DNA of 56,001 nucleotides from a virus (IMGVR_UViG_3300020057_000388:1-56001), one strand, 5' to 3'. Shown: positions 10,770-48,909, counted from the first letter of the stretch. Notes: generated by a model not told the origin, from the sequence alone. Program-made: numbers and translations.

Positions 10770-11563
10770 CCGGTGGTCCGGGCCTTGGCGATGCCATGGT
10801 CCTTTCCGCGGTGGCGCACGAGATCCGCCGCCAGCGTCCATCGGAACCGATCACCCTCGCTGTCGCCTACCCTGAGCTGTACGTCGGCAATCTCGACGTG
10901 ATGACTGAGCCATGGTCGCCGAGCTCGCCGCGCACGTTCGCGGCGCTCGACGACATGAACACCACGGGCGGTGAGCATCAGGTCACGTTCATGTGTCGGC
11001 AGCTCGGGCTTGAGCCGCCGACGACGATTCAGCAACGCGCATATTTCATGGTGGGTGAGGGTGGCGAATCGCCCCCCTTCCCGCGGTACGTGACGGTCCA
11101 GTCGAGCGCAGGGCCGTGGGCAGGAAACACGAAGCGATGGCCGGCGCAGGACTGGCGCGAGCTGGTCGCCCGCCTCGCGAGCGATGGGCGCGTCAAGGTG
11201 GTGCAGGTCGGGTCGACTGACGACCCGGACGTCGGCGCCGACATCGACGCGCGCGGCTGGCCGGTTCGGCTCAGCATGCGCCTGCTGGCCGATGCGCGCT
11301 GTCACGTCGGACCGATCTCTGGGCCGATGCACCTCGCGAACGCCGTGCGGACGCGATCGGTGATCGTAGCCGGGGGCCGCGAGCAGCGCGAGGTAGTCGG
11401 ATACGTCGGTGACGTGTGGGTCGAGAAACGCGTGGCCTGCTCGCCGTGCTGGCTGACCAGCTGTCCCGTCGAGAACGGCAACAAGATCGCCCCGTGCTTC
11501 TCGGCGATCTCGGTTTTTGAGGTCTTGGAAGCGGTCAACATGGTCCTGGAAGGGGCAGCGTGA
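10757..11563 (+). CDS. Glycosyltransferase family 9 (heptosyltransferase-like)
   Basis: GLGDAM, KRWP, GPISGPMHLANAV, CSPC motifs. Confidence 0.85.
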   Translation: MRLVAGGPGLGDAMVLSAVAHEIRRQRPSEPITLAVAYPELYVGNLDVMTEPWSPSSPRTFAALDDMNTTGGEHQVTFMCRQLGLEPPTTIQQRAYFMVGEGGESPPFPRYVTVQSSAGPWAGNTKRWPAQDWRELVARLASDGRVKVVQVGSTDDPDVGADIDARGWPVRLSMRLLADARCHVGPISGPMHLANAVRTRSVIVAGGREQREVVGYVGDVWVEKRVACSPCWLTSCPVENGNKIAPCFSAISVFEVLEAVNMVLEGAA

Positions 11564-12255
11564 GCGAGACGGTTCAGTCAACCGAGATCATCGACGGCGT
11601 GTCGCTCGTCGTGCATGACAGCGCGGGCGCTGGCTCGACGCTCGGCGTCGTCAAGGAGCTGCGCGAAGATTGCTACGGCGTCCGCGAGCTGAACCTGCAG
11701 CCCGGTGACGTCGTCGTCGACATCGGCGCGCACACTGGCGCGTTCGCCTGCTTCCTCGCGCTCCGCTACGGCGTGCGTGCCTATAGCTACGAGCCCGCCG
11801 CCGACAATTTCCGCCACCTGCAGCTGACCATCGCGGCCAACGGTGTCGCCGATCTCGTCGAGCCGCATCATGCTGGCGTGAGCAGTGACGGCCGCGCGGT
11901 CCGGGTCGTAACGCCGAGCTATAACACCGGCGGCGGAAGTAGTTTCTACGTCGGCGACCCGAGCGGACACCTCGTCAGCGAAGCACCATCAACCACGCTA
12001 GACGCCATCTTCGAGCGGTACGCGATCGAGCGCTGTGCGCTGCTCAAGGTCGATTGCGAGGGGATGGAATTCGAGGTGCTGCGGACGTTCGCCGCATGGG
12101 CGAGCGTCGCCAACCTCGGCATGGAAGTGCACGACTTCGGCGACATTCCTGACCGAGACGTGCCGGGCCCGCTGAAGCTGTGTGCGTCACGTGTCAGCGG
12201 TCAGGTGCGCACGGTCGTGATCGCGTCACCGCATAACGGTTTCGAGTGGACGTGA
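11560..12255 (+). CDS. FkbM-family methyltransferase
   Basis: VVDIGAHTG, YEP, LLKVDCEGMEFEVL. Confidence 0.9.
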   Translation: MSETVQSTEIIDGVSLVVHDSAGAGSTLGVVKELREDCYGVRELNLQPGDVVVDIGAHTGAFACFLALRYGVRAYSYEPAADNFRHLQLTIAANGVADLVEPHHAGVSSDGRAVRVVTPSYNTGGGSSFYVGDPSGHLVSEAPSTTLDAIFERYAIERCALLKVDCEGMEFEVLRTFAAWASVANLGMEVHDFGDIPDRDVPGPLKLCASRVSGQVRTVVIASPHNGFEWT

Positions 12256-12265
12256 GGGGGTCGGG

Positions 12266-12883
12266 ATGCTGAAGCGGTTCGGACTCATTACGGCGGTCGA
12301 TGCAACCGCGATCGCGCACTCGTTGCTCGCGGTTGCGAAACAGTTCGCGGGTACGACGCTGAACCTCTGCGAAATCGGTATTTGCCACGGCGAAACCTCG
12401 CGCGGCATGGCCGAGTTCCTGACCGACCGCGGCATCGCATTTGACTACGTCGGCGTCGACAACGGCCGCGATGGTGCAGGCGGTGCTGTGTGCGCTGACG
12501 TGCCGCCGTTCGCTGGCGCGCGCGTGGTGCAGGGCGAGTCGAGTCACGTCTACATCGAAGTTTCCAACGGGCTGCATTTCCTGTTCGTCGACGGCGGACA
12601 CGACATCAATCACGTGATGCTCGATGCGTTGCACTACGGCGACAAGGTTCTGCCGGGCGGACGCATGATCCTGCATGACGCGTCGCCGCTGGCACAGAAC
12701 AAATGCGACTGGCAGGGCACGGGTCCGAAGCACCACCCCGATTTCGGCACGGCCACGCTCGAAGCCATTCGCAAACTCGGAATGCTGCCGATGCTGCGGC
12801 CCGACTGGCGCATCGTGGAACATACGTACGACCCGGCCCTCGACTACGGCGGTGTCATCGTGTTCGAGCGCGTGGCGATCTAA
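12266..12883 (+). CDS. Class I SAM methyltransferase (Methyltransf_24-like)
   Basis: EIGICHGET, LFVDGGH, PGGRMILHD. Confidence 0.85.
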   Translation: MLKRFGLITAVDATAIAHSLLAVAKQFAGTTLNLCEIGICHGETSRGMAEFLTDRGIAFDYVGVDNGRDGAGGAVCADVPPFAGARVVQGESSHVYIEVSNGLHFLFVDGGHDINHVMLDALHYGDKVLPGGRMILHDASPLAQNKCDWQGTGPKHHPDFGTATLEAIRKLGMLPMLRPDWRIVEHTYDPALDYGGVIVFERVAI

Positions 12884-12886
12884 GCC

Positions 12887-13693
12887 GTGCGCCTATTTCT
12901 GCGCGGTTCGCTCGGCGACGAGGTCGCCATGACGGCCACGGTGCGCGCGCTGCGGGCCTTCCGCCCGAGCGAGCGTGTGACGGTGGACGTCCGACGGCCC
13001 GAGCTGTTCGAGAGCAATCCTCACCTCGAAGGCGGATGGGAAGATGACGGCACCGTCGTTGTTCTGCCGCTCGGTGGGTACGCCGGCCAGCACATGGCCG
13101 ACTCGTACGCCCACGCCTGCGGCATCGACCACGCCTCGCCAATGTACGAGCAGCTGCAGTGCCGTGAGCCTCAGATATTCCTGACCACCGCCGAGCGCGC
13201 GACAGCCAAGGCGCTCGACAATCCTCACGGCGCGGTTGCCGTCGACGCATGGGCCGGATGGCCGAGCCGGCGCTGGCCGCGCGCTTCGTGGGAACGGCTC
13301 GTCGCTGCGTTGTCGGATGAGCTCGTGCCAGTCATCGAAGTCGGCGCGACGGTGCCTGACTGCAACGGTGGTCGCCGCAATAGCCCGCTGCCGCAAACGG
13401 ACGCGAGCTACCTCGACCAGCTGACGATCCGCGAAACCGCGGCCGTGCTCGAACGCTGCGCGCTGTACGTCGGCAACGACTCGGGCCTGATGCACGTCGC
13501 TGCTGCAGTTGACTGCCCGCAAGTCATCGTGTTCGGCGCCATGCCGTCGGCCGTCCGAGCGTACGCCAGCACGACGGCCGCGAATCCGGGCGACCCGTGT
13601 GGCTGCGCTGAGCACTGCATGGCGCAGCCGCAGTGCCCGCTGCGCGTCACGGTCAAGTCGGTTCTCGGAACCGTCCTGCAGCGGCTCTCGTAG
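12887..13693 (+). CDS. Glycosyltransferase family 9 (heptosyltransferase-like)
   Basis: SLGD, NPHL, RRWP, YVGNDSGLMHVAAAV. Confidence 0.9.
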   Translation: MRLFLRGSLGDEVAMTATVRALRAFRPSERVTVDVRRPELFESNPHLEGGWEDDGTVVVLPLGGYAGQHMADSYAHACGIDHASPMYEQLQCREPQIFLTTAERATAKALDNPHGAVAVDAWAGWPSRRWPRASWERLVAALSDELVPVIEVGATVPDCNGGRRNSPLPQTDASYLDQLTIRETAAVLERCALYVGNDSGLMHVAAAVDCPQVIVFGAMPSAVRAYASTTAANPGDPCGCAEHCMAQPQCPLRVTVKSVLGTVLQRLS

Positions 13694-13720
13694 TTCACTT
13701 CCACAAGATCGGAACCAGTC

Positions 13721-13945
13721 ATGTCCGTTATCACTCGCGACGGTGGCATCGAAGCAACCGAAGCGCACCTCATTCTCGAATCTGCGATGGCGCGACTCAC
13801 GTTCGACGAGCGCCGCGTGGTCGCGCTTCGCATGGAAAACGCATCGTTCTTCGAGATCGCGCAGGAGCTGAACGTGCGCCCGGATTCGGCACGCGCGCTG
13901 TACGAGACGGCGCGCACAAAGCTGGCGTCGATCATCGGCGAGTAA
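13721..13945 (+). CDS. Sigma-70 region 4-like HTH protein
   Basis: LTFDERRVVALR...SFFEIAQELNV...ARTKL. Confidence 0.7.
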   Translation: MSVITRDGGIEATEAHLILESAMARLTFDERRVVALRMENASFFEIAQELNVRPDSARALYETARTKLASIIGE

Positions 13946-13955
13946 GGGGGGTTCT

Positions 13956-14150
13956 ATGTTTGGGAAGCTGCGGAGGTGGTTCGGGGGAACCCCGACGGGT
14001 GAAGCTGCCCGTCGCGAGCTGGTGATCGACGCCCGTATTCGGGACAACCGCGCCCATGGCGTGCGGCGGAAGGCGTCGCGGAATGCGTTCCGCAAGGCCA
14101 AGCGCCAAGCGCAGCGACGCGCACGACGCGTCACGCGGCACGCGCGATGA
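13956..14150 (+). CDS. Small basic hypothetical protein
   Basis: G-rich SD, operon packing. Confidence 0.45.
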   Translation: MFGKLRRWFGGTPTGEAARRELVIDARIRDNRAHGVRRKASRNAFRKAKRQAQRRARRVTRHAR

Positions 14151-14332
14151 TCGAGCTGCGGCTGCAGGACGAGAACGGCAATGGCATCGCGCTGACCGAG
14201 GCAGACAAGGGCGGTGCGCAGCTGACCGTATTCGGCGGCAGCGACAGCGTCATCGTGCGCCTCACGCGCCGGCAAGTCGATGCGCTCGCGCAGGGCGCTG
14301 AGTCAATCGCGGACGGCTCACTGCTCGACTGA
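14147..14332 (+). CDS. Hypothetical protein
   Basis: ATGA overlap with upstream gene. Confidence 0.5.
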   Translation: MIELRLQDENGNGIALTEADKGGAQLTVFGGSDSVIVRLTRRQVDALAQGAESIADGSLLD

Positions 14333-14368
14333 GCAGTGACATCACAAAACAAAATCGAGGGGGCTGGT

Positions 14369-15094
14369 ATGGCAAAGCGGGCAGCGGGGAGCGAGGTTGT
14401 GGTGGTCGAGGCTGACATGGTGGACCCGGACGACATCGCCCCTGGTCTCGAGGACGTGGACCTGACCAAGATTCGCACGGTGTCGGGTCTGCGCGAGATC
14501 GGCACCGAGCTGCAGGCTGACGTCCGCGGCTTGCTCGACGAAGTCGACGACCTGACGGACACCGTCGAGTCGCGCGAGGCAACGCTGGCTGCGTACAAGA
14601 GCGTGGCCTGTGACTGGCAGACGACGGCCGAGCAGGCGCAGAGCAACGCCGAGCGTGCGAACCTGACGTCGGTGCAAGCGCTCTCGCTCCGCGACGAAGC
14701 GATGCGCGAGCTACGCGGTGCGCGCTCGCTGTTTATGTCGATCTTGCGCGCCAAGTCCGAGGTGGGTCCCCGGCTGCTTGCGGATCTTCGCGTCGCCAGG
14801 GCGAACGAAGCGGCCTGCGCGGCCTACGCGAAAACGGCCGAATCTGTCAACCACGGCCTTGCGGCCCGCGTGCTGGAGATGGAAGCGGAAGTCGGTGCGA
14901 AGGCCGACGAATTGGCCGAGTGCCAGCATAAGGTCAACGCCGCGCTCGAATCGCGTGACGTCGCTCGCGCGCTACGCGACGACTTGCGCCAGGACGTCGC
15001 GAACCTGAAGTATCGTCTGGTGCCGCTCGTAGCCATCATCGGCGCAGCCATCGGCGGTTCGATCGCGGGCACCATCGCGTCGCTGCTGCGGTAG
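14369..15094 (+). CDS. Coiled-coil protein with C-terminal transmembrane helix
   Basis: Ala/Leu/Glu heptads, hydrophobic C-terminus, GAGGGG SD. Confidence 0.7.
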   Translation: MAKRAAGSEVVVVEADMVDPDDIAPGLEDVDLTKIRTVSGLREIGTELQADVRGLLDEVDDLTDTVESREATLAAYKSVACDWQTTAEQAQSNAERANLTSVQALSLRDEAMRELRGARSLFMSILRAKSEVGPRLLADLRVARANEAACAAYAKTAESVNHGLAARVLEMEAEVGAKADELAECQHKVNAALESRDVARALRDDLRQDVANLKYRLVPLVAIIGAAIGGSIAGTIASLLR

Positions 15095-15098
15095 GTCA

Positions 15099-17849
15099 TT
15101 GACGCCCGACCTGATCACGCGCATCAAGGCGCTGCTGGACGACCCCAAGAGCAAACACGCCAAAGCCTTCGCCGAATTTCTGGCCGGTTTGCAGCACAAC
15201 CTCAACCCCGCCGTCAGCCGTGACGACGCGATCGAGATGCTCGCGCAGCACCTCATCACCGGGCCGGTGTTCAACGCGCTGTTCGGCAACTACCAGTTCA
15301 CGCAACACAACCCCGTCTCGCAGGCCATGGGGAAGATGCTGCAATTGCTCGACGAGCAAGCCATCGGGAAGGAAGCCGAAACCCTCGACAAGTTCTACGA
15401 AGCCGTAAAAAGAAAAGTCGAAGGCGTCGACGACGCCGAAGGCCGCCAGACCGTCATCAAAACGCTCTACGATGAGTTCTTCAACAAGGCCTTTCCCCGC
15501 ATGGCCGAGCGGCTGGGCATCGTCTACACGCCCGTCGAAGTCGTCGACTTCATCATCCACAGCGTTCAGGACGTTTTACGCGACGAGTTCAACAGCGGAC
15601 TGGGCGAAAAAGACGTCCACATTATCGACCCCTTCACCGGCACCGGCACGTTCCTCGTCCGTCTGCTCCAGTCCGGCCTCATCCCGCCCGACAAGCTGCT
15701 GCACAAATACAAACACGAGATGCACGCCAACGAAATCGTCCTGCTCGCCTACTACATCGCCGCCATCAACATCGAAGAAACCTTCCACGGCCTGCGAAGC
15801 CAAGGCGCGAGCCTGGCCGAAGGCAAGGGCAAGGACGACTACATCCCCTTCGACGGCATCTGCCTGACCGACACGTTCCAACTCTACGAATCCGGCCAAC
15901 AACAATTCGAAGGCACCTTCCCCGAAAACTCCGCCCGCGTGAAACGCCAGAAAGCCAGCCCGATTCGCGTGGTCATCGCGAACCCGCCGTACTCCGCGCT
16001 ACAGAACAGTGAGAACGACGGAAACAAGAACCTCAAATACGAATCGTTGGACGACCGCATCCGTGCGACGTACGCGGAAAGGTCAAATGCGACGTTGCTG
16101 AACAGTGTCTACGACAGCTATGTCCGCGCCATTCGCTGGGCCAGCGATCGGATCAAGGACCGCGGCGTAATTGGATTTGTCACCAACGGCTCGTACATCG
16201 ACGGTAACGCATTCGATGGCTTGCGTGCTTGCCTGAAAGACGAATTTACATCGATTCTGGTCTTTAACTTGCGCGGAAACCAGCGGACGTCAGGTGAGCT
16301 ATCAAGGCAAGAAGGCGGAAAAATCTTCGGCTCCGGTAGTCGCGCGCCTATCGCCATCACGTTGTTTGTAAAGAACCCCGCTAAGAAGGACGGTTGCACA
16401 GTCCGGTACCACGACATCGGCGACTACCTCAGCCGCGAAAAAAAGCTCGCGCTCGTTAAGAGTTTCGCGAGCGTTTCGGGAATCGAAAACGCAGGGAAGT
16501 GGAGAGAGATTGAGCCCAATAGCGACAATGACTGGATCAACCAGAGAGACGAAGCCTTTTCGACTTTCGATGAATTGGGCCAGACCGACGCGATTTCAAA
16601 GGTTGTATTCTTTGAAGACTACTCAAGCGGCGTAATCACCAACCGCGACGCATGGTGCTACAACTTCTCGCAGAAAGTATTGCGGTCGAACATGTCCGAC
16701 ATGATCGACTTCTTCAATTCTGAAGTGAAACGATTCAAAAACTCCAACGTTCCCACTACCCCGAAGGAGCGGTTAGAGGCCGTTGACGATTTCATTGAGA
16801 TCGACCTCAAGAAGATCAGTTGGACGCGAGAGGTAAAACAGGATTTGGCGAGAGGAAAAGCGGGCAAATTCCATTCGGACGCTGTTCGCCAGTCGATGTA
16901 TCGTCCGTATTCAAAGCAGTGGATGTACTTCGACCGCCAATTCAATAACTGCGTCTACCAAATTCCGAAGATCTACCCGACTGCGAACTCCAAAAACCTC
17001 TCAATCATGGTGTCCGGCATCGGCGCTTCGAAAGAATTCTCCGCGTTGATAACCAATTGCACGCCCAACCGGCATTTGCACGATACAGGACAGTGTTACC
17101 CGCTCTATCTCTATGAACCCGCCGAAGATTCCGGCAATCTCAACCTCGGTAAAAGCGAAGGTGAGGTCATCGACGGCTATCGCCGTCGGGACGCGATCAC
17201 GGATGCGATCCTGAAGACGTTCCGGGCCGCGTACGGGAAGGACGTGGGCAAGCAGGACATCTTCTATTACGTCTACGGCGTGCTGCATTCCCCCGAGTAC
17301 CGCACCCGCTTCGCGGCGGACTTGAAGAAGATGCTGCCGCGCATCCCGCTGACGAAAGAAACCAAGGATTTCAAAACCTTCTCCGACTCCGGCCGGAAGC
17401 TGGCGGAATGGCACTTGAACTATGAGACGGTGCCGACCTGGCCGGTGGAGGAGATTCACGACAAGCTCGATCTGGGGTTGCCCGAGACCTATAAGGTCGA
17501 CAAGATGCGATTCGAACGCCCGAGCGCCGAGCAGAAGGCCGCGGGGGCGAAGTGGGACAAGACCCGCATCATCTATAACAGCCACCTGACGATCTCGAAG
17601 ATTCCGCTGGAGGCGTACGACTACATCGTGAACGGCAAGCCTGCGATCGAATGGATTATCGAACGCTATCAATTCACGCGGGACAAGGACAGCGGGATTG
17701 TGAATGACCCGAACGACTGGTGTAAGGAACACAACCAGCCGAGGTATATTGTGGATTTGATCGGGCGGGTGGTGCGGGTGAGTGTGGAGACGATGAAGAT
17801 CGTGAACCGATTGCCGATGTTGAATGAGAGAAAAGAGCGGGCGGGTTAA
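15099..17849 (+). CDS. Type ISP restriction-modification enzyme, N-terminally truncated (N6-adenine MTase + TRD only)
   Basis: RLGIVYTPVEVVDFI, DPFTGTGTF, NPPY, NLRGNQRTSGE, YVYGVLHSPEYR, VNGKPAIEWI; nuclease and SF2 helicase domains missing. Confidence 0.9.
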   Translation: MTPDLITRIKALLDDPKSKHAKAFAEFLAGLQHNLNPAVSRDDAIEMLAQHLITGPVFNALFGNYQFTQHNPVSQAMGKMLQLLDEQAIGKEAETLDKFYEAVKRKVEGVDDAEGRQTVIKTLYDEFFNKAFPRMAERLGIVYTPVEVVDFIIHSVQDVLRDEFNSGLGEKDVHIIDPFTGTGTFLVRLLQSGLIPPDKLLHKYKHEMHANEIVLLAYYIAAINIEETFHGLRSQGASLAEGKGKDDYIPFDGICLTDTFQLYESGQQQFEGTFPENSARVKRQKASPIRVVIANPPYSALQNSENDGNKNLKYESLDDRIRATYAERSNATLLNSVYDSYVRAIRWASDRIKDRGVIGFVTNGSYIDGNAFDGLRACLKDEFTSILVFNLRGNQRTSGELSRQEGGKIFGSGSRAPIAITLFVKNPAKKDGCTVRYHDIGDYLSREKKLALVKSFASVSGIENAGKWREIEPNSDNDWINQRDEAFSTFDELGQTDAISKVVFFEDYSSGVITNRDAWCYNFSQKVLRSNMSDMIDFFNSEVKRFKNSNVPTTPKERLEAVDDFIEIDLKKISWTREVKQDLARGKAGKFHSDAVRQSMYRPYSKQWMYFDRQFNNCVYQIPKIYPTANSKNLSIMVSGIGASKEFSALITNCTPNRHLHDTGQCYPLYLYEPAEDSGNLNLGKSEGEVIDGYRRRDAITDAILKTFRAAYGKDVGKQDIFYYVYGVLHSPEYRTRFAADLKKMLPRIPLTKETKDFKTFSDSGRKLAEWHLNYETVPTWPVEEIHDKLDLGLPETYKVDKMRFERPSAEQKAAGAKWDKTRIIYNSHLTISKIPLEAYDYIVNGKPAIEWIIERYQFTRDKDSGIVNDPNDWCKEHNQPRYIVDLIGRVVRVSVETMKIVNRLPMLNERKERAG

Positions 17850-17951
17850 GTGGGGGGTGTTGGAATCCGATGCTGGTGTGGCAACGGCCGTAGCCGTACA
17901 ACCGTGAACGTCCGAGTTTGGCGATTATGTCGACGCAGCGGATAGCGACCT

Positions 17952-18071
17952 CTTTGGAATTGCTGGCTGTATCCAGCGATTGGCTTCTGGTGTAGTTTCG
18001 CGGGTGGCTGTTCGATCGCCACGGCGAACCTCGCCTGGCTGTGGCTCATGTTCTTGTACCGGCGCAACTAG
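17952..18071 (+). pseudogene. 3' remnant of a small membrane-protein gene displaced by the Type ISP insert
   Basis: Startless frame LWNCWLYPAIGFWCSFAGGCSIATANLAWLWLMFLYRRN*. Confidence 0.55.
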
Positions 18072-18101
18072 GCGGCGGATCTTCTCGGTAGGTGGTGGAC
18101 A

Positions 18102-19163
18102 GTGGCGAATCAAGAGGCAGCGCAGGGATTCAAACCGGGGATGTTCTCGCGGCCCGACCGCGTCCACGCGCCTTTGCATGTGGTGTGCACCCTGTTCAAT
18201 TCAGCGCGCTACCGTTCTCGCTGGGATCTCTACGAGCCTTTTGCGAAGATGGTTCACGACGCGGGCGCCGTCCTGCATACGGTCGAGGTCGCGTTCGGGG
18301 ATCGTGACCATGCGGTGCCGGAGTATGCGCCCGCGATGGATTCGGCGACGCCGTCATGGGTGCCGACTCCGCAGCACCAATATACGCGCCTGCGCACCAA
18401 GTCCGAAATCTGGCACAAGGAGTCGTCACAGAATGTCGGCGTGACCCGGCTTCCCCATGACGCCGAGTACATCCTTTTTCTCGACGCCGACGTTCGTTTC
18501 GTTCGGCCGGATTGGGCAGGTGCCATCGTTCAGGCACTGCAACACTACGCGGTGCTGCAGCCGTGGAGTGAAGCACTCGACCTGACGCACGACTTCAGGC
18601 CGCACCAGACACACAAGTCATTCGCGGCGTGTTTTCGCGAGGGCGATCAACGCAACCCCACTGGTCACCGTCCGTACTACGGCGGTCCGGTGCAGCCAGG
18701 CAAAACGCACCTGTGGCATCCGGGTTTCGCGTGGGCGTGGCGCCGGGATGCGCTCGACGCGGTTGGCGGGCAGATTGATTTCGCCATCGCTGGCGCCGGT
18801 GACCATCACCAAGCGCAAGCGCTGATCGGTGAGGTAGACCGATCGTTCCATCCGAAGGCGCACCCCGGCTATGTTCGTCGGTTGCATGAGTGGCAGGCGC
18901 TGGCCGAGCGCGAGATCCGACGCAACATCGGGTTCATCCCTGGCCTCATCACGCATGCTCATCATGGGCCGAAGCGGTCGCGGCAATACTGGCAGCGCTG
19001 GCGCATCCTGGTCGACAACGGATTCAACCCTGACGTTGATCTCAAGCGTGACTGGCAGGGGCTCTATCAGCTCGTCGATGACGGCTCTGCGCGGTCGAGG
19101 AATCTGCGCGACCAGCTGCGGACGTACTTTGCTTCGCGGAACGAAGACGATCCAAACACTTGA
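18102..19163 (+). CDS. GT-A fold glycosyltransferase-like protein
   Basis: IWHKE, FLDAD (DxD), HPGFAWAWRR, GAGDH, HHG motifs. Confidence 0.65.
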   Translation: MANQEAAQGFKPGMFSRPDRVHAPLHVVCTLFNSARYRSRWDLYEPFAKMVHDAGAVLHTVEVAFGDRDHAVPEYAPAMDSATPSWVPTPQHQYTRLRTKSEIWHKESSQNVGVTRLPHDAEYILFLDADVRFVRPDWAGAIVQALQHYAVLQPWSEALDLTHDFRPHQTHKSFAACFREGDQRNPTGHRPYYGGPVQPGKTHLWHPGFAWAWRRDALDAVGGQIDFAIAGAGDHHQAQALIGEVDRSFHPKAHPGYVRRLHEWQALAEREIRRNIGFIPGLITHAHHGPKRSRQYWQRWRILVDNGFNPDVDLKRDWQGLYQLVDDGSARSRNLRDQLRTYFASRNEDDPNT

Positions 19164-19176
19164 CCGCGATGGCCCC

Positions 19177-19418
19177 GACGCTTCAAAAAAGTTGCGTGCC
19201 GGCCGGGGCACGGTGGGAAAAATTCCGGTGATGGGGATGCGCGAGCGCGGCAAGGGCGGCCGGACGAAAGCACACCCCGTCGCCAGCACTGAGGCGAACA
19301 CACTCCAAGCGGCCATCCACAAGAGCGTTGAGAGTGGGTCAACCCTCCACACTGACGAGCACGGCGGCTATCATGGTATCGGCGGCCTCTTCTACGATCA
19401 CCACACCGTCAGCCATGA
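19177..19418 (+). pseudogene. IS1595/ISXO2-family transposase internal fragment
   Basis: KKLRAGRGTVGKIPVMGMRER...GSTLHTDEHGGY...HHTVSH, with no start or C-terminus. Confidence 0.8.
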
Positions 19419-19462
19419 GCCCCCTTCCTTCTGTTTCTTTGTGACGTCGCAATGGCCCCCCT

Positions 19463-19990
19463 ATGCCGACAATCGAAAAACTATACGCCGGCATGCTAGA
19501 CGCCACTGCAAATGGCAAGAGCCACGGTATTGGGCGGGAAGACTGCGAATTCGCAGAGTATGCCCTTACGCAGGTGGATCGACTTCGTGCCGGCCTCCTT
19601 TCTCTCGGGGGGAGAGAAAAAGACGTTCAGGGTGTTTTACGAAAGCTGCGCCAGGGGGCGGCTTCGTATCGGCGTCGAGCGCGTCATGCGAAGGCGAGGA
19701 ACGCCTCCGTACAAAAGTACGGCGTTAGCTTTCGCCAACGGGTCGCCGAGCGCGATGGACTGAAGTGTAAAGTCTGCGGGTTCGACGTGACCGTTCACGC
19801 ACATCACATCGTTCCGATATCGGAAGATGGACCGGATGAATCAGAGAACGGCATCATGCTCTGCCCTCATTGCCATTCATTGGCGCACGCCGGAAGGCTC
19901 ACGGCCCAAAGTCTCTATGCCTTGATCAGCGTCACATCAGCCCATGGCGCTAGTTCTGTCATCGGGAATGAAGCTAGTTGTGGCGTCTGA
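19463..19990 (+). CDS. HNH endonuclease
   Basis: RDGLKCKVCG...HAHHIVP...NGIMLCPHCH. Confidence 0.85.
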   Translation: MPTIEKLYAGMLDATANGKSHGIGREDCEFAEYALTQVDRLRAGLLSLGGREKDVQGVLRKLRQGAASYRRRARHAKARNASVQKYGVSFRQRVAERDGLKCKVCGFDVTVHAHHIVPISEDGPDESENGIMLCPHCHSLAHAGRLTAQSLYALISVTSAHGASSVIGNEASCGV

Positions 19991-20768
19991 CACTGGGGGT
20001 CAGGTCCGCGAGTCCGTTGGTGGTCGACCTGAAGTGGCACTCGACCTAACCCAGCTCTACAAGTTGGCGCTTCGCGCATCGACGGTCGCTGACGTGGCGC
20101 AATGGTTCTGCGTCTCCGAGCGAACGGTCTACCGACGACTGCTGGAGGAGCCCTACGCTTCTATCTGGGCGCGAGGGCAGGCAGAGGCGAAGGTCAGCGT
20201 GCGCGCGGCCCTCTTTGGGATGAAGGATACCAACGCGACCGCGGCGATCTTCCTCGCGAAGAATCTCTGCGGGATGACGGATAAGGTCGCCCACGAGCAC
20301 GCCGGCCCCGGTGGCGGGCCGATCGCAATGGTGACGACGTACGCCGACCTAGCTCGCGAAGCCGAGGCGCTGATTCGCAAGGGGGTGCGAATCGAAGGCT
20401 ACGACTACATTGACGGGGAGCTAGTGCCGAATGACGAGGGCGAGGACACCCGAGGATCAGAAGATCATCAACCACCTGACCAACAAGCAACGCCCGGAAT
20501 GGTGGGTCGAGACGCACCTATCGGGGAAGCTCTGGCCGAAGCAGGTAGAGATCCTGCGCTCGATCAAGAAGAATCGACGCACGGCGGTGCGCTCGTGCCA
20601 TGGCGCGGGCAAGACGCACTTGGCAGCGAGAGCGGCCCTGCAGTTCGGGTGCTGTCACCCGTACAGCATCGTGATCACGACAGCGCCGACGGGGCGCCAG
20701 GTGCGGAAGCTGCTGTGGCAGGAGCTGCGGAAGGCGCACTCGACAGCGCTTCGGCCGTTGGGTGGTAA
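19968..20768 (+). CDS. terS: Terminase small subunit
   Basis: HTH-like N-terminus, AAIFLAKNLCG, EHAGPGGGPI; directly upstream of terL; start uncertain. Confidence 0.75.
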   Translation: MKLVVASDTGGQVRESVGGRPEVALDLTQLYKLALRASTVADVAQWFCVSERTVYRRLLEEPYASIWARGQAEAKVSVRAALFGMKDTNATAAIFLAKNLCGMTDKVAHEHAGPGGGPIAMVTTYADLAREAEALIRKGVRIEGYDYIDGELVPNDEGEDTRGSEDHQPPDQQATPGMVGRDAPIGEALAEAGRDPALDQEESTHGGALVPWRGQDALGSESGPAVRVLSPVQHRDHDSADGAPGAEAAVAGAAEGALDSASAVGW

Positions 20769-21825
20769 GCTCAACCTCACCGACCTGACGTTCGAGGATG
20801 GGTGGTACCTGTTCGGGTTCGCGACTGACGACCCGACGAGCTTTCAGGGCGTCCACCCGTCGAGCGGTCACATTCTGATCATCGTCGACGAGGCAAGCGG
20901 CGTCGCGGATGAAATCTGGGAAGCCATCGACGCGGTCATGTCGTCGGGTGGCGCCCGGCTGCTGAGCATCGGCAACCCAACCGATCCTAACAGCCGCTTC
21001 GCTCAAGAGTTCAAAACCCCCGGCGTCGAGAAAATCAAAATCACGGCGTTCGATACGCCGAACCTGCAGGGCAACGGTATCGTCATCCCTGGCCTGGTCA
21101 CACAGGAATGGGTCGACGACATCGCCGCACGCTACGGCGAGGAGTCATCGTTTTACATCAGCCGCGTGCTGGCTGACTTCCCCGAGCTGGGCGACGACAC
21201 GTTGTTCCCGCTCTCGTGGATCGAGCGCGCCATGGCCCGAGAGATCGAGCCCAAGGCGACCGACCCGAAGGGGCTCGGCGTCGACGTCGCACTGTACGGG
21301 GGCGACGAAACCGTCATCGCGACCCGGCATGGACCGCGGGTGCGCCTGGTCGAGTGCTACCGGAACCAGGATACGATGGCGACCGCCGGTCGGGCGAAGA
21401 TATGGCGCCGCGACTTCGGAGCCGAGGTGATCGGCGTGGACGCCAACGGCATCGGCGCCGGGGTGCACGATAAGCTGATCGAGGAAGGGGAACCGTCCGA
21501 GCCGATCAACGTCGGCACACGCGCCCACGACCCCGAGCGGTACTTCAACCGCCGCAGCGAATTGTATTGGGCGGTGCGCGAGCGTCTGAAGTCGGGCGAC
21601 TGCGATCTGCCGCAGGATGATCTGCTGTGCGCGCAAATGTCGGCGATCCGCTACCGCGTGAACGGGAAGGGTCAGATTCAAGTCGAGAGCAAGGACGACA
21701 TGCGCAAGCGCCTGAAGCACCGCGCCGGGGTGAACAGCCCTGACCGTGCGGATGCCGTGGTGCTGGCCTACGCAGCGCGGTCGTCGTCGCTCATCAGCAT
21801 CGACAACGCGATTTCGTTTGGGTGA
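20431..21825 (+). CDS. terL: Terminase large subunit
   Basis: Walker A SCHGAGKT, Walker B IIVDEA, GNP, nuclease GVDVA and SPDRADA. Confidence 0.95.
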   Translation: MTRARTPEDQKIINHLTNKQRPEWWVETHLSGKLWPKQVEILRSIKKNRRTAVRSCHGAGKTHLAARAALQFGCCHPYSIVITTAPTGRQVRKLLWQELRKAHSTALRPLGGKLNLTDLTFEDGWYLFGFATDDPTSFQGVHPSSGHILIIVDEASGVADEIWEAIDAVMSSGGARLLSIGNPTDPNSRFAQEFKTPGVEKIKITAFDTPNLQGNGIVIPGLVTQEWVDDIAARYGEESSFYISRVLADFPELGDDTLFPLSWIERAMAREIEPKATDPKGLGVDVALYGGDETVIATRHGPRVRLVECYRNQDTMATAGRAKIWRRDFGAEVIGVDANGIGAGVHDKLIEEGEPSEPINVGTRAHDPERYFNRRSELYWAVRERLKSGDCDLPQDDLLCAQMSAIRYRVNGKGQIQVESKDDMRKRLKHRAGVNSPDRADAVVLAYAARSSSLISIDNAISFG

Positions 21826-21840
21826 CAAGGGGGTGAGGGG

Positions 21841-22044
21841 ATGGGACGCAACGCACGCAAGCAGTACCGCACGGGCAAGCTGCCCTGTGGGCACGCGTAC
21901 CGGATCAACACCAAGTCGACGCCGATCGGAACGCTGATTCAGCGCTGCAACGGCTGCGTCCGCGACCTGAAGGCAGCGACCGGCGAGGGCACCACGATCG
22001 CCGAGCGCGAGCTATACTTCATCGAGAACCGAGCCGCGGCGTAA
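21841..22044 (+). CDS. Hypothetical protein
   Basis: GAGGGG SD; stop overlaps next start. Confidence 0.5.
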   Translation: MGRNARKQYRTGKLPCGHAYRINTKSTPIGTLIQRCNGCVRDLKAATGEGTTIAERELYFIENRAAA

Positions 22045-22867: not shown

Positions 22868-22896
22868 CAAACATGCTGGAAACGGATAGAGAACGA

Positions 22897-23949
22897 ATGA
22901 CCTATGCGCTACACCACGGCGACTGCATGGAGGTTATGCGGACGCTACCGGACAACTCCATCGATCTTGTGCTGACTGACCCGCCCTACTTCAAGGTCAA
23001 GGGCGACGATTGGGACAGGCAATGGGATAAGCCGGACGCCTTTCTCTCGTGGCTGGATGGTGTGGTGGAACAGTTCGTGCGCGTGTTGAAGCCGAATGGG
23101 AGCCTGTACCTGTTCGCCAGCCCGCAGATGGGTAGCCGCGTAGAAATGCAGATTGCCGTGCGCTTGAGCGTGCTGTGCAACATTCGATGGCGCAAGGAGC
23201 AGGGGTGGCATAATGGGGCATGTAAGGATGATTTACGCGGTTACTTCCCCGCCTCCGAAACAATCATCTTTGCCGAGCACTACGGCGCGGACAACATCGC
23301 CAAGGGTGGGGCGGGCTATGCGGCCAAGTGCGACGAGCTGCGGGGGTTCATCTTTGAGCCGTTGCGGGCTTATATCGCGGGCGAGTGGCAGCGCGCTGGC
23401 CTGACTTCGCGAGACGCCAACATCGCAACATCCAGCCAGATGGCGGGCCACTACCTGAGCCGCGTTCAGTGGAGGCTGCCTACGCGCGAGAAGTACGAAC
23501 AGCTTCGCGCCTATGCCAACCGCCAAGGCGGCGAGTATTTGCGCAAGGACTACCATTATTTGCGCAAGGACTACCATGAATTGCGCAAGGATTACGAGGA
23601 CTTGCGCAAGGACTACCATGAATTGCGCAAGGATTACGAGGACTTGCGGCGACCGTTCGCAGTCACCGCTGATGTCCCCTATACCGACGTTTGGGACTTC
23701 CCCACGGTGCAGGCATACAGGGGCAAGCACCCATGCGAGAAGCCGCAGGCGCTGTTGCGGCACATCATCGCGGCCAGTTCCAAGCCTGGCGCTGTAGTGC
23801 TTGACGCATTCGCGGGATCGGCCAGCACTGGTATCGCATGTCAGGCGATGGGCCGCTCGTTTATCGGGATCGAGAAGGATGCGGGCTATTACGCCAGTGC
23901 AACCGAACGGCTGTTTGATCGCCAAGAATCACTACTGGCAGCGGCATGA
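22897..23949 (+). CDS. Beta-class N4/N6 DNA methyltransferase
   Basis: HHGDC, TDPPY, HPCEKP, LDAFAGSAST. Confidence 0.93.
   Translation: MTYALHHGDCMEVMRTLPDNSIDLVLTDPPYFKVKGDDWDRQWDKPDAFLSWLDGVVEQFVRVLKPNGSLYLFASPQMGSRVEMQIAVRLSVLCNIRWRKEQGWHNGACKDDLRGYFPASETIIFAEHYGADNIAKGGAGYAAKCDELRGFIFEPLRAYIAGEWQRAGLTSRDANIATSSQMAGHYLSRVQWRLPTREKYEQLRAYANRQGGEYLRKDYHYLRKDYHELRKDYEDLRKDYHELRKDYEDLRRPFAVTADVPYTDVWDFPTVQAYRGKHPCEKPQALLRHIIAASSKPGAVVLDAFAGSASTGIACQAMGRSFIGIEKDAGYYASATERLFDRQESLLAAA
23539..23648. repeat. 21-bp in-frame tandem repeat (LRKDYxx x5) within the MTase
   Basis: TTGCGCAAGGA(C/T)TAC... unit at 23539, 23560, 23581, 23602, 23623. Confidence 0.9.
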
Positions 23950-26744: not shown

Positions 26745-28295
26745 CTAGCGTATCTGTATCCCCGCCTGGCGTTCAATGCTGCGGTGCGTGCCTGGCGTCA
26801 CGTCCTTGACGGGGTGCGGCACCGTCACGCGGCCCGGCTTGGTCGGGTGCCGCAGGGAAGAAGAAATGACGAACCGACTCAAACGACTGGAGCTGACCTG
26901 GATCGGCAAGGATGAGCGGCCCCGGCTGGAGCCCCGCATTCTGCTCCCTGAGGCTTCGCTCGCGCACGTGTCGGCGACCAACGTTGGCCGACGCAGTGAT
27001 CACCTCGTCATCGAAGGTGACAACCTGCTCGCCCTGAAGGCCTTGGAGCAGGAGTTCGCTGGCAAGGTCAAGTGCATTTACATCGACCCCCCGTACAACA
27101 CCGGAAGCGCCTTCTTTACCTACGACGATGGTTTGGAACACAGCCTCTGGCTGTCCCTTATGCGCGCCCGCCTTGAGCTTCTTTGGAAACTGCTCACGCC
27201 GCGCAATGGGACCTTGCTCATCAGCATTAACGACGACGAATGCCACTACCTGAAAGTTCTTTGCGACGAGCTTTTCGGGCGCGACGCATTCTACTGCAGC
27301 TTCGTATGGAACTACGAAGGGAACACCGACAACCAGGCCAAGGTAATCAACTACCACGAATACGTACTCGCCTATTCCAAGTCTGGCGACATCGATGAGC
27401 CGAACGTCGTCGACCCCAATGTCGGCGCGGACAGCAAGCTCTTCCGCGCCGAAATCCGCAATACGGTCGTGAAGAACGGTCCGAAGAACCCGCCTGTAGC
27501 GGTTCGACTTCCTGCGGGATTTCCGGCGTCGTTTGACTCCGGGAGGGTAGCCCGAGAAGACGTCCAGTGGCCCAGATACGACCGAGATCTCCACGTCTCC
27601 GCGGGTAAACTGTCGAAGCCTGTTACGGCCACGTCCGGCTGGAGCTCTCGCAAGATCCTGGAGTCCTTTGTCGCCGCCGGCTTCAGCCCCGTGCTCGACA
27701 GCAAAGGGCAGGAGACGGTGTTCGAGATCACGCGAACGGGCGCTATCGAGGCTGTCAAAAAGCGGGAGCAACGCAAGGGTCATGTCGTCAGCGTTCTCCG
27801 TGGTTTCGGCACGACTAATCAGATGCGTCTAATGCTGGAGAGACTCGGGATCAGGTTCTCCTACCCGAAGCCGGTGGATCTCGTTGCGTACCTCATCGAG
27901 GTATTCAGCGGACCCGATGACATCATTCTCGACTCCTTCGCAGGCAGCGGAACCACTGGTCATGCAGTGCTGAAGATCAATGCCGAGCGGGGGAGCAATC
28001 GACGCTTCGTCCTTGTCGAACTTGACTCCGACACCGCACGGAGTGTCGTCGTACCCCGCCTGCGTGCGGCCGCCGACGGGCACGAAGGTGCTGGACTGTC
28101 AGGCTACGGAGGCGGCTTCCGCTTCTTCAAGCTCGCCCCCATCGCTGCTCGAGAAGGATAAGTGGGGCAACTGGATCGTCAGCAAGCAGTACCACCCCGA
28201 GATGCTCGCCGAGGCGATGTGCAAGCTCGAGGGCGCTGCGACACGACCTGCCAGCCATCCGCGTTCAGGTGCTTGAGCAGTTCCCGACTCGACAT
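26745..28295 (-). pseudogene. hicA: HicA toxin gene split by the mod insert
   Basis: 5' part 28295-28233 MSSRELLKHLNADGWQVVSQR; 3' part 26855-26745 LRHPTKPGRVTVPHPVKD...; GSH motif absent. Confidence 0.88.
26866..28161 (+). CDS. mod: Type III R-M methyltransferase (Mod), C-terminally truncated
   Basis: LELTWIGK, GDNLLALKAL, IYIDPPYNTG, PKP, LDSFAGSGTT; native tail continues in another frame after a C5 run at 28136-28140. Confidence 0.9.
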   Translation: MTNRLKRLELTWIGKDERPRLEPRILLPEASLAHVSATNVGRRSDHLVIEGDNLLALKALEQEFAGKVKCIYIDPPYNTGSAFFTYDDGLEHSLWLSLMRARLELLWKLLTPRNGTLLISINDDECHYLKVLCDELFGRDAFYCSFVWNYEGNTDNQAKVINYHEYVLAYSKSGDIDEPNVVDPNVGADSKLFRAEIRNTVVKNGPKNPPVAVRLPAGFPASFDSGRVAREDVQWPRYDRDLHVSAGKLSKPVTATSGWSSRKILESFVAAGFSPVLDSKGQETVFEITRTGAIEAVKKREQRKGHVVSVLRGFGTTNQMRLMLERLGIRFSYPKPVDLVAYLIEVFSGPDDIILDSFAGSGTTGHAVLKINAERGSNRRFVLVELDSDTARSVVVPRLRAAADGHEGAGLSGYGGGFRFFKLAPIAAREG

Positions 28296-39496: not shown

Positions 39497-39542
39497 CCGC
39501 ACCTCCTGGTGGCTCACGCCGTCAGGAGGTGCGGCTGTTTTC
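39497..39542 (+). terminator. Intrinsic terminator after capsid gene
   Basis: CCGCACCTCCTG...CAGGAGGTGCGG followed by TGTTTT. Confidence 0.65.
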
Positions 39543-39568
39543 GTGTTTCTGCGGTGTGGAGGGGTGGA

Positions 39569-40570
39569 ATGCTCAAAGTCGCGTGGATCGGTGACGACTA
39601 TCTGGCAACGGGGCGCGGCTACGGCTACGCCGTCGCGGCCGAAGGAATCAAGCAGGCGCTCGCGCCGTACGTCGATTGGGATGACGCCGCGCCGCTCGCG
39701 TTCACCGTCGCACCGCCGACCGACTTGCCCGAGAAGATCGAAGGCAAGCGGCTCGTCGCTTACACGATGTTTGAGTCGCCCGACCTACCGCGAGGCGCCC
39801 GCGATGCGCTCGCGCGCATGGACCTGCTCGTTGTGCCGTCGAAGTTCTGTCGCTCGATCTTCTTGAACGTCCGCGAGGATCTACCCGTGCTGCTCGCGCC
39901 GCTTGGCGTCGATCCGATGCCGCTCGTGGAACGCACCTACGGTGTGCCGTTCCGCTTCTTGTGGGTCGGCGCCGCGAGCTTACGCAAGGGGCAGGTGATC
40001 GCCGCGCAGGCGTACGTCCTCGGCCAGCTGAAAGACTGCGGTGCGCACCTGTACCTCAAGACGACCACGCAAGATCCGAACGACCCCGGCAAGATCGAGA
40101 CGAACGACAGCGGAACCATTCACTACGACACCCGCAACCTGACGCGTGCCGAGCTGGGCGAGCTGTACGCCAGCGCGCACGCGTTCGTGTACCCGACGAT
40201 TGGCGAAGGCTTCGGCATGACGCTCGCGGAAGCGATGACGTCGGGCCTGCCGTGTATCGCTCCCGAGTGGGGCGGACACCTGGAATTCGCCAGCGAGCGC
40301 AACTGCCTGCTGCTGCCGGCGCAGCCGATTCGCGTCGGCGTTACGCACGGGGAGCATGCCGCCGAGACTGATGACGGGAAGTACCGGCAAGCGATGACCG
40401 GGCCGAACGACTTCGCCGAAGCGATGCTCGTCACCATGCTGAAGTACGACCAGACGCTAGAGCTTGGCGCCGAGGGCGCGCGCTACATCCGGCGCGAATT
40501 CACATGGGCGAAATGCGGAGCGCGCATCGCCGAAATTCTCACCGACGCGCAGAAGCGTTTCCAGCTCTGA
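39569..40570 (+). CDS. Glycosyltransferase family 4 (GT-B)
   Basis: RKG, EGFGMTLAEAMTSGLPCI. Confidence 0.92.
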   Translation: MLKVAWIGDDYLATGRGYGYAVAAEGIKQALAPYVDWDDAAPLAFTVAPPTDLPEKIEGKRLVAYTMFESPDLPRGARDALARMDLLVVPSKFCRSIFLNVREDLPVLLAPLGVDPMPLVERTYGVPFRFLWVGAASLRKGQVIAAQAYVLGQLKDCGAHLYLKTTTQDPNDPGKIETNDSGTIHYDTRNLTRAELGELYASAHAFVYPTIGEGFGMTLAEAMTSGLPCIAPEWGGHLEFASERNCLLLPAQPIRVGVTHGEHAAETDDGKYRQAMTGPNDFAEAMLVTMLKYDQTLELGAEGARYIRREFTWAKCGARIAEILTDAQKRFQL

Positions 40571-48163: not shown

Positions 48164-48909
48164 GCGAGGAGCTGGTCAAGGGCCTGTCGGTCGTGACGCT
48201 CTCGTACAAGCGGCCCGACCTGTTCGCGCAGCTCGCGGACAATCTGCCGCAAGGCGACGACATCATCGTTGAGAGAATCGTTGTGAATAACGGTGGTGAC
48301 GAGGGCACCAACCGGGCGGCGGATCGCCGCGGCTGGACGGTGCTCGAACCGGGGTGCAACCTCAGTTTCTCCGAGGGCTGCAACTACGGCGTGGCCGAGT
48401 CGGTGTCGACGCACGTGCTGCTCGTCAGCAACGACGCCGTCGTGACGCCCGAGGCGGTGCGCACGCTCTGGTTGCACCGCTCGCGTCCGCTGATCGCGCC
48501 GATGATCCTGAACAGCGACGGGACGGTCAACTTTGCCGGCGGGGCGATCCAATCACCGAGCTGGGCGCCGGTGCATATCGACCGCGGCAAGAACCCGGAC
48601 ACGCTCGATCAGCGGCCCCGCTTCTGCCCGTGGCTGACGGGCGCCTGCATCATGGTTGCGCGCGACCTGTGGGACGACTTGGGCGGAATGTCTGAAGCGT
48701 TCCCGCGGTACGTCGGACACCAAGACACTGACTTTTCGCTGCGCGCCCTGGAGCGCGGAATCATGCCGATGGTCGTCATGGAAGCGCGAATCACGCATGA
48801 CGAGTTCGGCAGCCGCAGCCCGAACGACGAAGGCGAGGGCGGAAAGGTGTTCTCGGAACGCTGGTACACGAACCAGCGCCTACAGCGCGCGCTCGGCGTC
48901 TACGAGTGA
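48160..48909 (+). CDS. Glycosyltransferase family 2
   Basis: LSVVTLSY, VVNNG, NLSFSEGCNYG, TGACIMV, DTDFSLR. Confidence 0.9.
   Translation: MSEELVKGLSVVTLSYKRPDLFAQLADNLPQGDDIIVERIVVNNGGDEGTNRAADRRGWTVLEPGCNLSFSEGCNYGVAESVSTHVLLVSNDAVVTPEAVRTLWLHRSRPLIAPMILNSDGTVNFAGGAIQSPSWAPVHIDRGKNPDTLDQRPRFCPWLTGACIMVARDLWDDLGGMSEAFPRYVGHQDTDFSLRALERGIMPMVVMEARITHDEFGSRSPNDEGEGGKVFSERWYTNQRLQRALGVYE

Follow-up and report, generated by a model that had tools for sequence, protein, structure and literature searches.

The fusion gene and its domains

The window analysed here, which is the whole of the IMG/VR virus record IMGVR_UViG_3300020057_000388 (56,001 bases, linear, estimated to be 61% complete, from a metagenome assembly), is a tailed-phage contig that carries on its plus strand, at 15099..17849, an open reading frame (ORF) of 916 aa in which five residues foreign to Type ISP enzymes are followed by the coupler, methyltransferase (MTase) and target recognition domain (TRD) of such an enzyme. 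This fusion ORF opens with TTG ACG CCC GAC CTG ATC (MTPDLI), as a sequence-only reading of the same DNA had proposed; that reading had set the start at 15094, which is the last base of the TAG of the upstream gene, whereas the ORF in fact begins at 15099. After the TAA stop (17847-17849) the same frame runs into a TAG (17943-17945) and is then open from 17946 to a TAG at 18069-18071 (41 codons), most of which is the startless 3' remnant of a membrane-protein gene (17950..18071, plus strand, including the TAG stop).

The coupler domain (aa 5-115; 15111..15443, plus strand) matches Pfam ISP_coupler (PF22240, E 7e-42) over profile positions 16-126 of 126, the first 15 positions being absent. Further Pfam matches include N6_Mtase and Eco57I, and both signature motifs are kept on the plus strand: motif I, DPFTGTG, which binds S-adenosylmethionine (AdoMet) (aa 177-183; 15627..15647), and the catalytic motif IV, NPPY (aa 295-298; 15981..15992), with columns D177-G183 and N295, P296, P297 and Y298 invariant in an 18-sequence alignment. 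The Type ISP C-terminal specificity domain (aa 504-887; 16608..17759, plus strand) matches PF18135 (Type_ISP_C, E 1.6e-115) over profile positions 2-342 of 342, as well as phrog_4840, under which PHROGs holds the tail of this domain as 'unknown function'. In a phmmer search of PDB sequences, aa 7-673 and 716-908 align with LlaGI 568-1219 and 1231-1402, and aa 7-908 with LlaBIII 732-1574. Pfam found no Mrr-family nuclease in the 916-aa ORF, and the PDB alignments begin past it; likewise no helicase family representing the superfamily 2 (SF2) helicase-like ATPase motor was found in the ORF by Pfam, and the DNA upstream is an unrelated phage gene of 252 aa. The claim that the ORF enters the coupler/MTase region directly, with DPFTGTG, NPPY and TRD intact and nuclease and helicase missing, therefore stands on Pfam, phmmer against the PDB and the alignment together, and the comparison with LlaGI and LlaBIII that had been proposed to place the breakpoint puts the first homologous residue at aa 7, opposite LlaGI 568 and LlaBIII 732.

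To judge from these domains, the fusion ORF is a descendant of Type ISP enzymes. The closest of 7,999 scored relatives are P0002 (980 aa, 72% identity) and P0003 (1,473 aa, with helicase domains, 70% identity), and among the 120 relatives listed most are full-length enzymes of ~1,590 aa. The G+C content is 0.48-0.60 within the ORF and 0.61-0.69 in the flanks; G+C at third codon positions (GC3) is 0.77 in the ORF, like that of phage genes.

ISP homology starts at residue 6, and residues 1-5 (MTPDL) stand in for the ISP consensus IAERH. Where relatives read ...WAKDVAxIAERH|ITRIKALL..., the window reads MTPDL|ITRIKALL.... Among 111 ISP sequences (those covering query residues 10-900; 9 of 120 hits were dropped for not doing so), the columns under query residues 1, 2 and 5 hold I (110), A (110) and H (106), and the deviants there are the M, T and L of the query. 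The starts of natural short ISP forms (P0017, P0020, P0022, P0023, P0089, P0099, L106, L142 and L144) are different again. Had stand-alone ISP methylases shared the start MTPDLIT, the idea of a borrowed start would have fallen; the aligned ISP relatives and the short forms all begin otherwise. At the DNA level, similarity to two ISP genes (on contigs L244 and L267, discussed below) opens at window position 15115.

Alleles with and without the insert

Public metagenome runs (X1-X15) were compared with the window through their per-run contigs, over 13500-20000 in the case of X4, X5, X6 and X8. The share of 500 sampled words of 14336-19163 is 1.00 in X1 and X2, 0.98 in X3, 0.89 in X4 and 0.25-0.43 in X5-X8; X1-X3 are flagged as possible source runs of the window and X4 is not. 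Evidence was taken neither from uncovered parts of the insert in X5, X6 and X8 nor from the small-share runs X9-X15.

A contig of X5 (1,278 nt) is an empty site: it fits the window over 14127-15117, continues with 117 letters foreign to the window and fits again over 17950-18119, skipping 2832. A contig of X8, a run from a different year and study, continues beyond 15117 in frame as N-G-A-F-E-F-V-G-S-L, and another X8 contig, which fits from 17951, is preceded by P-A-T-G-F-F-F-A-W-G (both translated by hand). Both X8 translations match the consensus of a family of small membrane proteins described below (...PDLINGxFExxGG... and ...TxFFxxWGLWN...). The window accordingly divides, on the plus strand, into the retained 5' end of the membrane-protein gene (15099..15117: TTG, the codons for T-P-D-L-I and one base, with the family motif in register and its extent given by the run contigs), inserted DNA of 2,832 nt defined by the X5 contig (15118..17949: the ISP coding sequence beginning with the coupler, followed by 100 nt of 3' flank) and the remnant. 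Bases 15115-15117 can be assigned to either parent, since DNA similarity to ISP genes opens at 15115 while the run contigs fit to 15117.

The intact gene comprises 19 + 117 + 122 = 258 nt (85 codons plus the stop), which lies inside the length range of the family; we infer its middle from its two ends. Both the insert (2,832 nt) and the stretch that it replaced (117 nt) are multiples of three, which keeps the remnant in frame with the methylase ORF. Thus 2,832 nt replaced 39 codons of an 85-aa gene, with start codon and reading frame kept, and public metagenome runs contain both kinds of phage, interrupted and intact. The capture event is close to certain. The proposal that an ISP fragment had replaced the middle of a phage membrane-protein gene and taken over its start is borne out by the empty-site contig of X5, the two ends in X8 and the N-terminal motif of the family.

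The remnant and its protein family

The open frame 17946-18071 reads RPLWNCWLYPAIGFWCSFAGGCSIATANLAWLWLMFLYRRN and has no ATG, GTG or TTG until seven codons from its end, so that the startless hydrophobic remnant that had been noticed after the stop is real and has no usable start codon. When the 41-aa peptide was searched by phmmer against 1.84 billion representative proteins, 8 of them matched at E <= 1e-3, the best with E 5.1e-5 and 58% identity. Seven of the 8 are proteins of 69-164 aa that match remnant residues 3-40 (3-41 in one, 4-40 in another) near their C-terminus; the eighth, P0123, was discounted as a repetitive protein whose match is confined to remnant residues 18-38. A PDLING-type motif stands near the N-terminus in 6 of the 7 homologues (P0128, for instance, starts MTLPDLING), and the seventh (P0125, 69 aa) lacks that part. 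Unrelated N-termini among these homologues would have spoken against a shared origin of start and remnant, and they were not found.

A profile search with the seven homologues collected 2,899 proteins at E <= 1e-3 among 5,403 candidates, and 262 stretches in IMG/VR are related to this PDLING family, whose proteins are typically some 85-95 aa long. Among 122 members, 69-263 aa long (median 94 aa), xDx[IVLM]NG occurs within the first 70 residues in 109, most commonly as PDLING (48); its offset from the start, among the 109, is 3 residues in 70 and 2 residues in 17. The window's M-T-P-D-L-I has the motif at offset 2, the N and G that follow coming from the empty-site allele. Two members (P0184 and P0199) begin MTPDLING and one (P0183) begins LTPDLING, which, with the 109 motif-bearing members, confirms the small phage membrane-protein family starting MTPDLING to which the sequence-only reading had likened the remnant. 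Pfam and PHROGs hold no usable model for it; none of the 120 family proteins listed has a precomputed Pfam domain, and the names they bear are 'hypothetical protein' and, twice, 'uncharacterized membrane protein YfcA'.

When a profile of the 122 members was run against the 1,539 six-frame stop-to-stop segments of the window (104,454 residues), the remnant alone matched (E 1e-14; profile positions 52-89 of 128, 51.1 bits; core WGxWNxxYYP...SFxGG...N..W). Because the profile matches nothing but the remnant across six frames, the contig has no intact second copy. A run of 22 G/C third positions (18014-18077) was considered as a coding signal for the remnant, and 35 of the 42 such runs in the window fall in the third position of long ORFs; it was not relied on, because the frame on the opposite strand has the same third position. 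Elsewhere in the family, one member (L197:5031-6206) has a C-terminal extension of ~300 aa for which there is no Pfam family, and an 894-aa ORF in L210, a candidate long fusion, was rejected as an off-frame artefact.

Predicted fold and neighbours of the lost protein

The disrupted gene encodes an 85-aa membrane protein that belongs to a widespread unnamed phage family, and modelling of the family predicts three helices in a SemiSWEET-like fold. An AlphaFold (AF2) model of the family, built from a 69-sequence alignment, has three long helices (predicted local distance difference test score, pLDDT, 90.4), and the top 11 Foldseek matches in the PDB are all SemiSWEETs, with template modelling (TM) scores up to 0.87 by target length and a root-mean-square deviation of 1.7 A over 82 columns, at E values of only 0.1-1.6. 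In a protein atlas the family lies near viral clusters, two of them carrying PQ-loop or MtN3 families in part, with scores of 0.87-0.88 that serve as leads only. In its predicted three-helix bundle the family may resemble SemiSWEETs (PDB 4RNG, 4X5N and 4QNC), whereas it differs from them in lacking a Pfam PQ-loop or MtN3 match (none to PQ-loop or MtN3_slv in 7 members at E <= 1), in being viral and in sitting among nucleotide and DNA-modification genes. Our search of the literature on SemiSWEETs and bacteriophages yielded nothing relevant.

The family often adjoins genes of DNA methylation, 7-deazaguanine, Mom-like or nucleotide-metabolism proteins. A scan of neighbours covering 60 proteins from 26 loci found DNA methyltransferases at L168 (on both sides), L182 and L207; QueE with GTP cyclohydrolase at L174; a Mom-like protein at L225; PAPS reductase at L207; deoxyribosyltransferase at L217; and deoxyribonucleotidase with a deoxynucleoside monophosphate (dNMP) kinase at L154. 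At least some of the phage population can evidently do without the membrane gene.

Probable donor and mode of recombination

A metagenome contig, L244, resembles the 5' part of the insert at 91.7% identity over 15115-15980, and upstream of this match its reading frame goes on as ISP sequence. This donor-like segment (L244:51-1172) gives way to unrelated DNA exactly at the NPPY motif; one end of the contig looks like a sequencing adapter, so that L244 may be a chimera. The closest full-length ISP genes are planctomycetal: one of 1,644 aa in a Planctomycetota metagenome-assembled genome (L267) has 77% amino acid identity with the fusion ORF, and nucleotide identity of 84% over 15115-16543 and 82% over 17088-17806. 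Between these two blocks, at 16544-17087 in the middle of the specificity domain, L267 offers no DNA match, and the target sequence may therefore differ; the pattern suggests that this is a swapped or fast-evolving target-recognition segment. The donor lineage, perhaps the host, would be planctomycete-like.

The 3' flank brought in with the insert (17850..17949, plus strand) contains the second in-frame stop, and its first 25 nt recur in contig L265 as part of a 262-nt block of 98.9% identity. This block (L265:98-400, matching window 17613-17874) covers the last ~85 ISP codons and the 25 nt of flank, and, on an unrelated contig, ends a 100-aa ORF whose N-terminus is different; pieces of this ISP gene thus appear to have taken part in more than one recombination. 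No Rfam family at E <= 1 was found in the 252 nt that follow the fusion ORF, nor a promoter-like or terminator-like site nearby on the plus strand. At the event itself there are no flanking direct repeats longer than expected by chance, two candidates (D12 and D13, 14-15 nt, 80-93% identity) being taken as chance, and no signs of an integrase or transposase were seen.

Illegitimate recombination, in one event or two, would have exchanged the middle of the membrane gene for ISP DNA. The left breakpoint falls at the start of the ISP coupler domain, in frame, with the phage TTG and its first five codons heading the 916-aa protein, and the last 39 family-matching codons (of the 41-codon open frame) are left as a dead, startless remnant. 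The ~3 ambiguous bases at the left junction (15115-15117) fit a microhomology-mediated join.

Short ISP methylases in other viral contigs

Nuclease and helicase coding sequence lies directly upstream in 66 of 69 IMG/VR loci with ISP genes, in some cases interrupted by frameshifts or truncated where the contig stops. It is missing from the remaining three, L106 (941 aa), L142 (919 aa) and L144 (890 aa), which begin within ~17 residues of the window's ISP border and have Erf, single-stranded DNA-binding protein (SSB), NinB, HNH, endolysin, helicase and terminase genes as neighbours. Sequence comparison indicates that these are independently truncated ISP methylases in viral contigs. Short forms are found in bacteria as well (P0023, for example, starts MAV-IAERH), and the truncation point appears from these cases to be one that is tolerated in nature.

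Two of the viral cases (L144:4992-7664 and L142:3379-6138) lie on phage contigs of low G+C content near genes for a helicase, terminase, Erf-like annealing protein and endolysin; the start of L144 falls at most one or two residues from the breakpoint in the window. In the third (L106:4821-7646), residues 7-56 match phrog_1167, the N-terminal part of an unrelated phage family (E 1e-6), and L106 appears to be another example of a phage gene start that now heads an ISP fragment.

Genomic context

By PHROG matches, the left of the window encodes a Sak4-like annealing protein, a replication initiator and a DnaB-like helicase; the small and large terminase genes lie at 19944-21825, with portal and major head proteins to their right. 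Apart from the fusion ORF there are two genes for DNA methyltransferases (22873-23949 and 26776-28161) and a further methyltransferase gene (11560-12255). These three match phrog_8156 and phrog_67, and the phage has a whole set of DNA-modification genes. Glycosyltransferases, one of family 9 (heptosyltransferase-like) and two more, are encoded among the structural genes (12887-13693, 39509-40570 and 48906-49949).

The fusion ORF adjoins no restriction nuclease, its neighbours being the 252-aa protein, the remnant and a 353-aa protein; the closest nuclease-like gene is that of an HNH protein adjoining the terminase genes. The upstream gene (14336..15094, plus strand; 252 aa, with a hydrophobic C-terminal tail) has its TAG stop 4 nt before the TTG. 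Pfam and PHROGs contain no family for it, no relative was found by tblastn against phage records, and in IMG/VR one weak match of 25 residues was all that appeared. The downstream gene (18102..19163, plus strand; 353 aa) lies outside the event and also has no Pfam or PHROG family; its product has 168 relatives in IMG/VR, the best with 50% identity. These relatives include many giant-virus (GVMAG) contigs, and there is a 40% identical match in Xanthomonas phage XaC1.

Relatives of the locus as a whole were sought without success: megablast of 12000-22000 against 50,697 phage records gave no match, nor did tblastn of the remnant against phages, the exact junction and remnant patterns had 0 matches in IMG/VR, the 80 loci kept (of 168) with relatives of the 353-aa protein, together with other loci, contained no significant remnant-like peptide, and the motif TPDLI|MTPDL occurred in 1.96 Mb of loci only twice, by chance.

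Probable function of the captured protein and alternative explanations

We favour the reading, at a probability of about 0.72 for its parts taken jointly, that the middle of a phage gene was replaced by an ISP module whose product is a stand-alone methylase acting as counter-defence. The captured protein would work alone as an AdoMet-dependent N6-adenine methylase and, like ISP enzymes, would mark one strand of a short asymmetric site on the phage DNA; progeny phage would then escape recognition when the next host has an ISP enzyme of matching specificity, which would make this a counter-defence gene. An anti-restriction function is likely on the evidence of the sequence. The 916-codon frame is open and the catalytic motifs are kept, as expected of an intact methylase, and the start codon is validated by the N-terminus of the membrane-protein family itself. 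At 283 nearly invariant columns (the three non-ISP N-terminal residues excluded) the protein has six deviations, N59, A102, D112, T122, Y667 and T780, all conservative and none in motif I or IV.

Several observations weigh on the other side. Six deviations exceed the median of 4 among relatives, although they are inside the range of 0-15. The available text of the LlaGI papers (PMC2790903, PMC4872093) describes one-strand N6-adenine methylation by the whole enzyme with ATP present, and that text does not report methylation by a coupler-MTase-TRD fragment lacking the ATPase. A cognate full-length ISP enzyme with the same specificity region was not found among the genes compared, the closest of which differs most in the middle of that domain. 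Run X4, which is not flagged as a possible source of the window, has no listed contig bridging the left junction: one of its contigs passes from the phage flank into 62 unlike letters, and another enters the ISP part at 15115 from 109 unlike letters that may belong to a full-length donor gene. Depth in X4 is ~30-34 in the flanks and ~8-16 in the insert, a hint of a commoner intact allele from which no conclusion is drawn, as run-contig depth cannot rank parts. An insert that coexists with an intact allele could be recent and never selected.

The last point leads to the strongest competing explanation, which we regard as unlikely although it outranks the others: the insertion is real and its product an inert passenger, a recent neutral or mildly harmful accident in an accessory membrane gene. 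The coexistence of intact and interrupted alleles is what such an accident would produce, an in-frame join arises by chance one time in three, and conservation is slightly below the median of ISP relatives. Against this, a frame of 2.75 kb is fully open with its catalytic motifs intact, the interrupted allele occurs in several runs, and the breakpoint lies at the same domain border as in three phage-borne short forms and several bacterial ones.

It is very improbable that the fragment binds rather than methylates, occupying ISP targets or interfering with the host enzyme and so blocking the loading or collision of translocating ISP enzymes. The MTase-TRD unit is the DNA clamp of ISP enzymes according to the available text of PMC4872093, and the coupler, which contacts the motor in the full enzyme, has been kept; yet the AdoMet-binding and catalytic motifs, which binding alone does not need, are conserved, and the portions of the Type ISP literature available offer no precedent.

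That an assembler wrongly joined a phage contig to a bacterial ISP gene is scarcely credible. The window is a metagenome assembly and X4 lacks a bridging contig at the left junction, but a chimera would give one junction, whereas two are present, separated by 2,832 nt, in a single 258-nt gene, each of them in frame; moreover, contigs of X1 and X2 carry all 500 sampled words, and the left junction offers an overlap of only ~3 nt, on which no assembler would join sequences. The notion of an ordinary stand-alone methylase that always started MTPDLI, followed by a hydrophobic frame that is an artefact of composition (17850-18100 is G+T-rich, and such DNA alone yields peptides rich in W, C, G and L), is already refuted by the empty-site allele, by the absence of MTPDL from the other aligned ISP relatives and by the match of the remnant to the family profile (E 1e-14 against the six-frame window).

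Relation to known systems

Type ISP enzymes combine ATP-driven translocation with cleavage between head-to-head sites, as described in the available text of PMC3553950 and PMC4666363. The fusion ORF shares with LlaGI and LlaBIII (PDB 5FFJ and 4XQK; E 2.6e-218 and 2.3e-189) a collinear coupler, gamma-class N6-adenine methyltransferase and specificity domain over aa 7-908, and closer, uncharacterised full-length relatives of the ORF reach 70-77% identity. Whereas LlaGI and LlaBIII have an Mrr-type nuclease and an SF2 ATPase in about 560-730 N-terminal residues, the fusion ORF is without both, is encoded by a phage and is headed by five residues of a phage membrane protein. With nuclease and motor missing, the captured protein is predicted to be unable to translocate or cut, and since it fails these two defining features of the Type ISP class it is not a member. 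A Type IIL enzyme, PDB 7LO5 ('Site-specific DNA-methyltransferase (adenine-specific)'), which we take to be DrdV, matches aa 27-906 with its MTase-TRD unit (E 1.6e-137); that protein keeps an N-terminal nuclease domain and is a restriction enzyme, and the fusion ORF lacks this domain.

The Dam methyltransferases of T4 and P1 are examples of phage orphan methyltransferases. The fusion ORF appears to fit this known kind, a phage orphan methylase from a host restriction system, sharing with such enzymes a methylase without a partner nuclease, a phage genome with other methylases and, presumably, an origin in host restriction. It differs from them in being truncated at the coupler from a single-polypeptide ISP enzyme, in probably modifying only one strand of an asymmetric site, by analogy with ISP enzymes, and in that the alleles before and after the capture are documented. 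The deployment of phage orphan DNA methyltransferases against host restriction is treated as a general class in the available text of PMC12707154, and in the parts of the literature on Type ISP enzymes and orphan methyltransferases available we found no description of an ISP-derived orphan or phage methylase.

Implications

Phages that carry orphan methylases from host restriction systems are already well known, so the advance lies in detail and documentation and not in kind: this is a base-resolved capture for which the recipient gene, a donor-like gene, both breakpoints and the ancestral allele all come from natural samples. The stolen gene would tie an uncultured phage of high G+C content to planctomycete-like hosts, and the interrupted gene exposes a large unnamed family of putatively SemiSWEET-like phage membrane proteins among DNA-modification genes. 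The capture also leads to the prediction that the coupler, MTase and TRD of Type ISP enzymes together suffice for methylation, which is of interest for the study and engineering of these enzymes.

A broader conjecture, which we put forward tentatively and at somewhat less than even odds, is that phages repeatedly and independently excise the coupler-methylase-specificity module near the border of motor and coupler and join it in frame to first codons of their own, so that the product would act as a stand-alone hemimethylase conferring immunity to the donor's ISP enzyme. If this is true, such genes would form a separate, undescribed class of phage counter-defence genes and the ISP methylase module would be autonomous, and the coexisting alleles would be a snapshot of an arms race in which the insert is favoured only where hosts carry a matching ISP enzyme.

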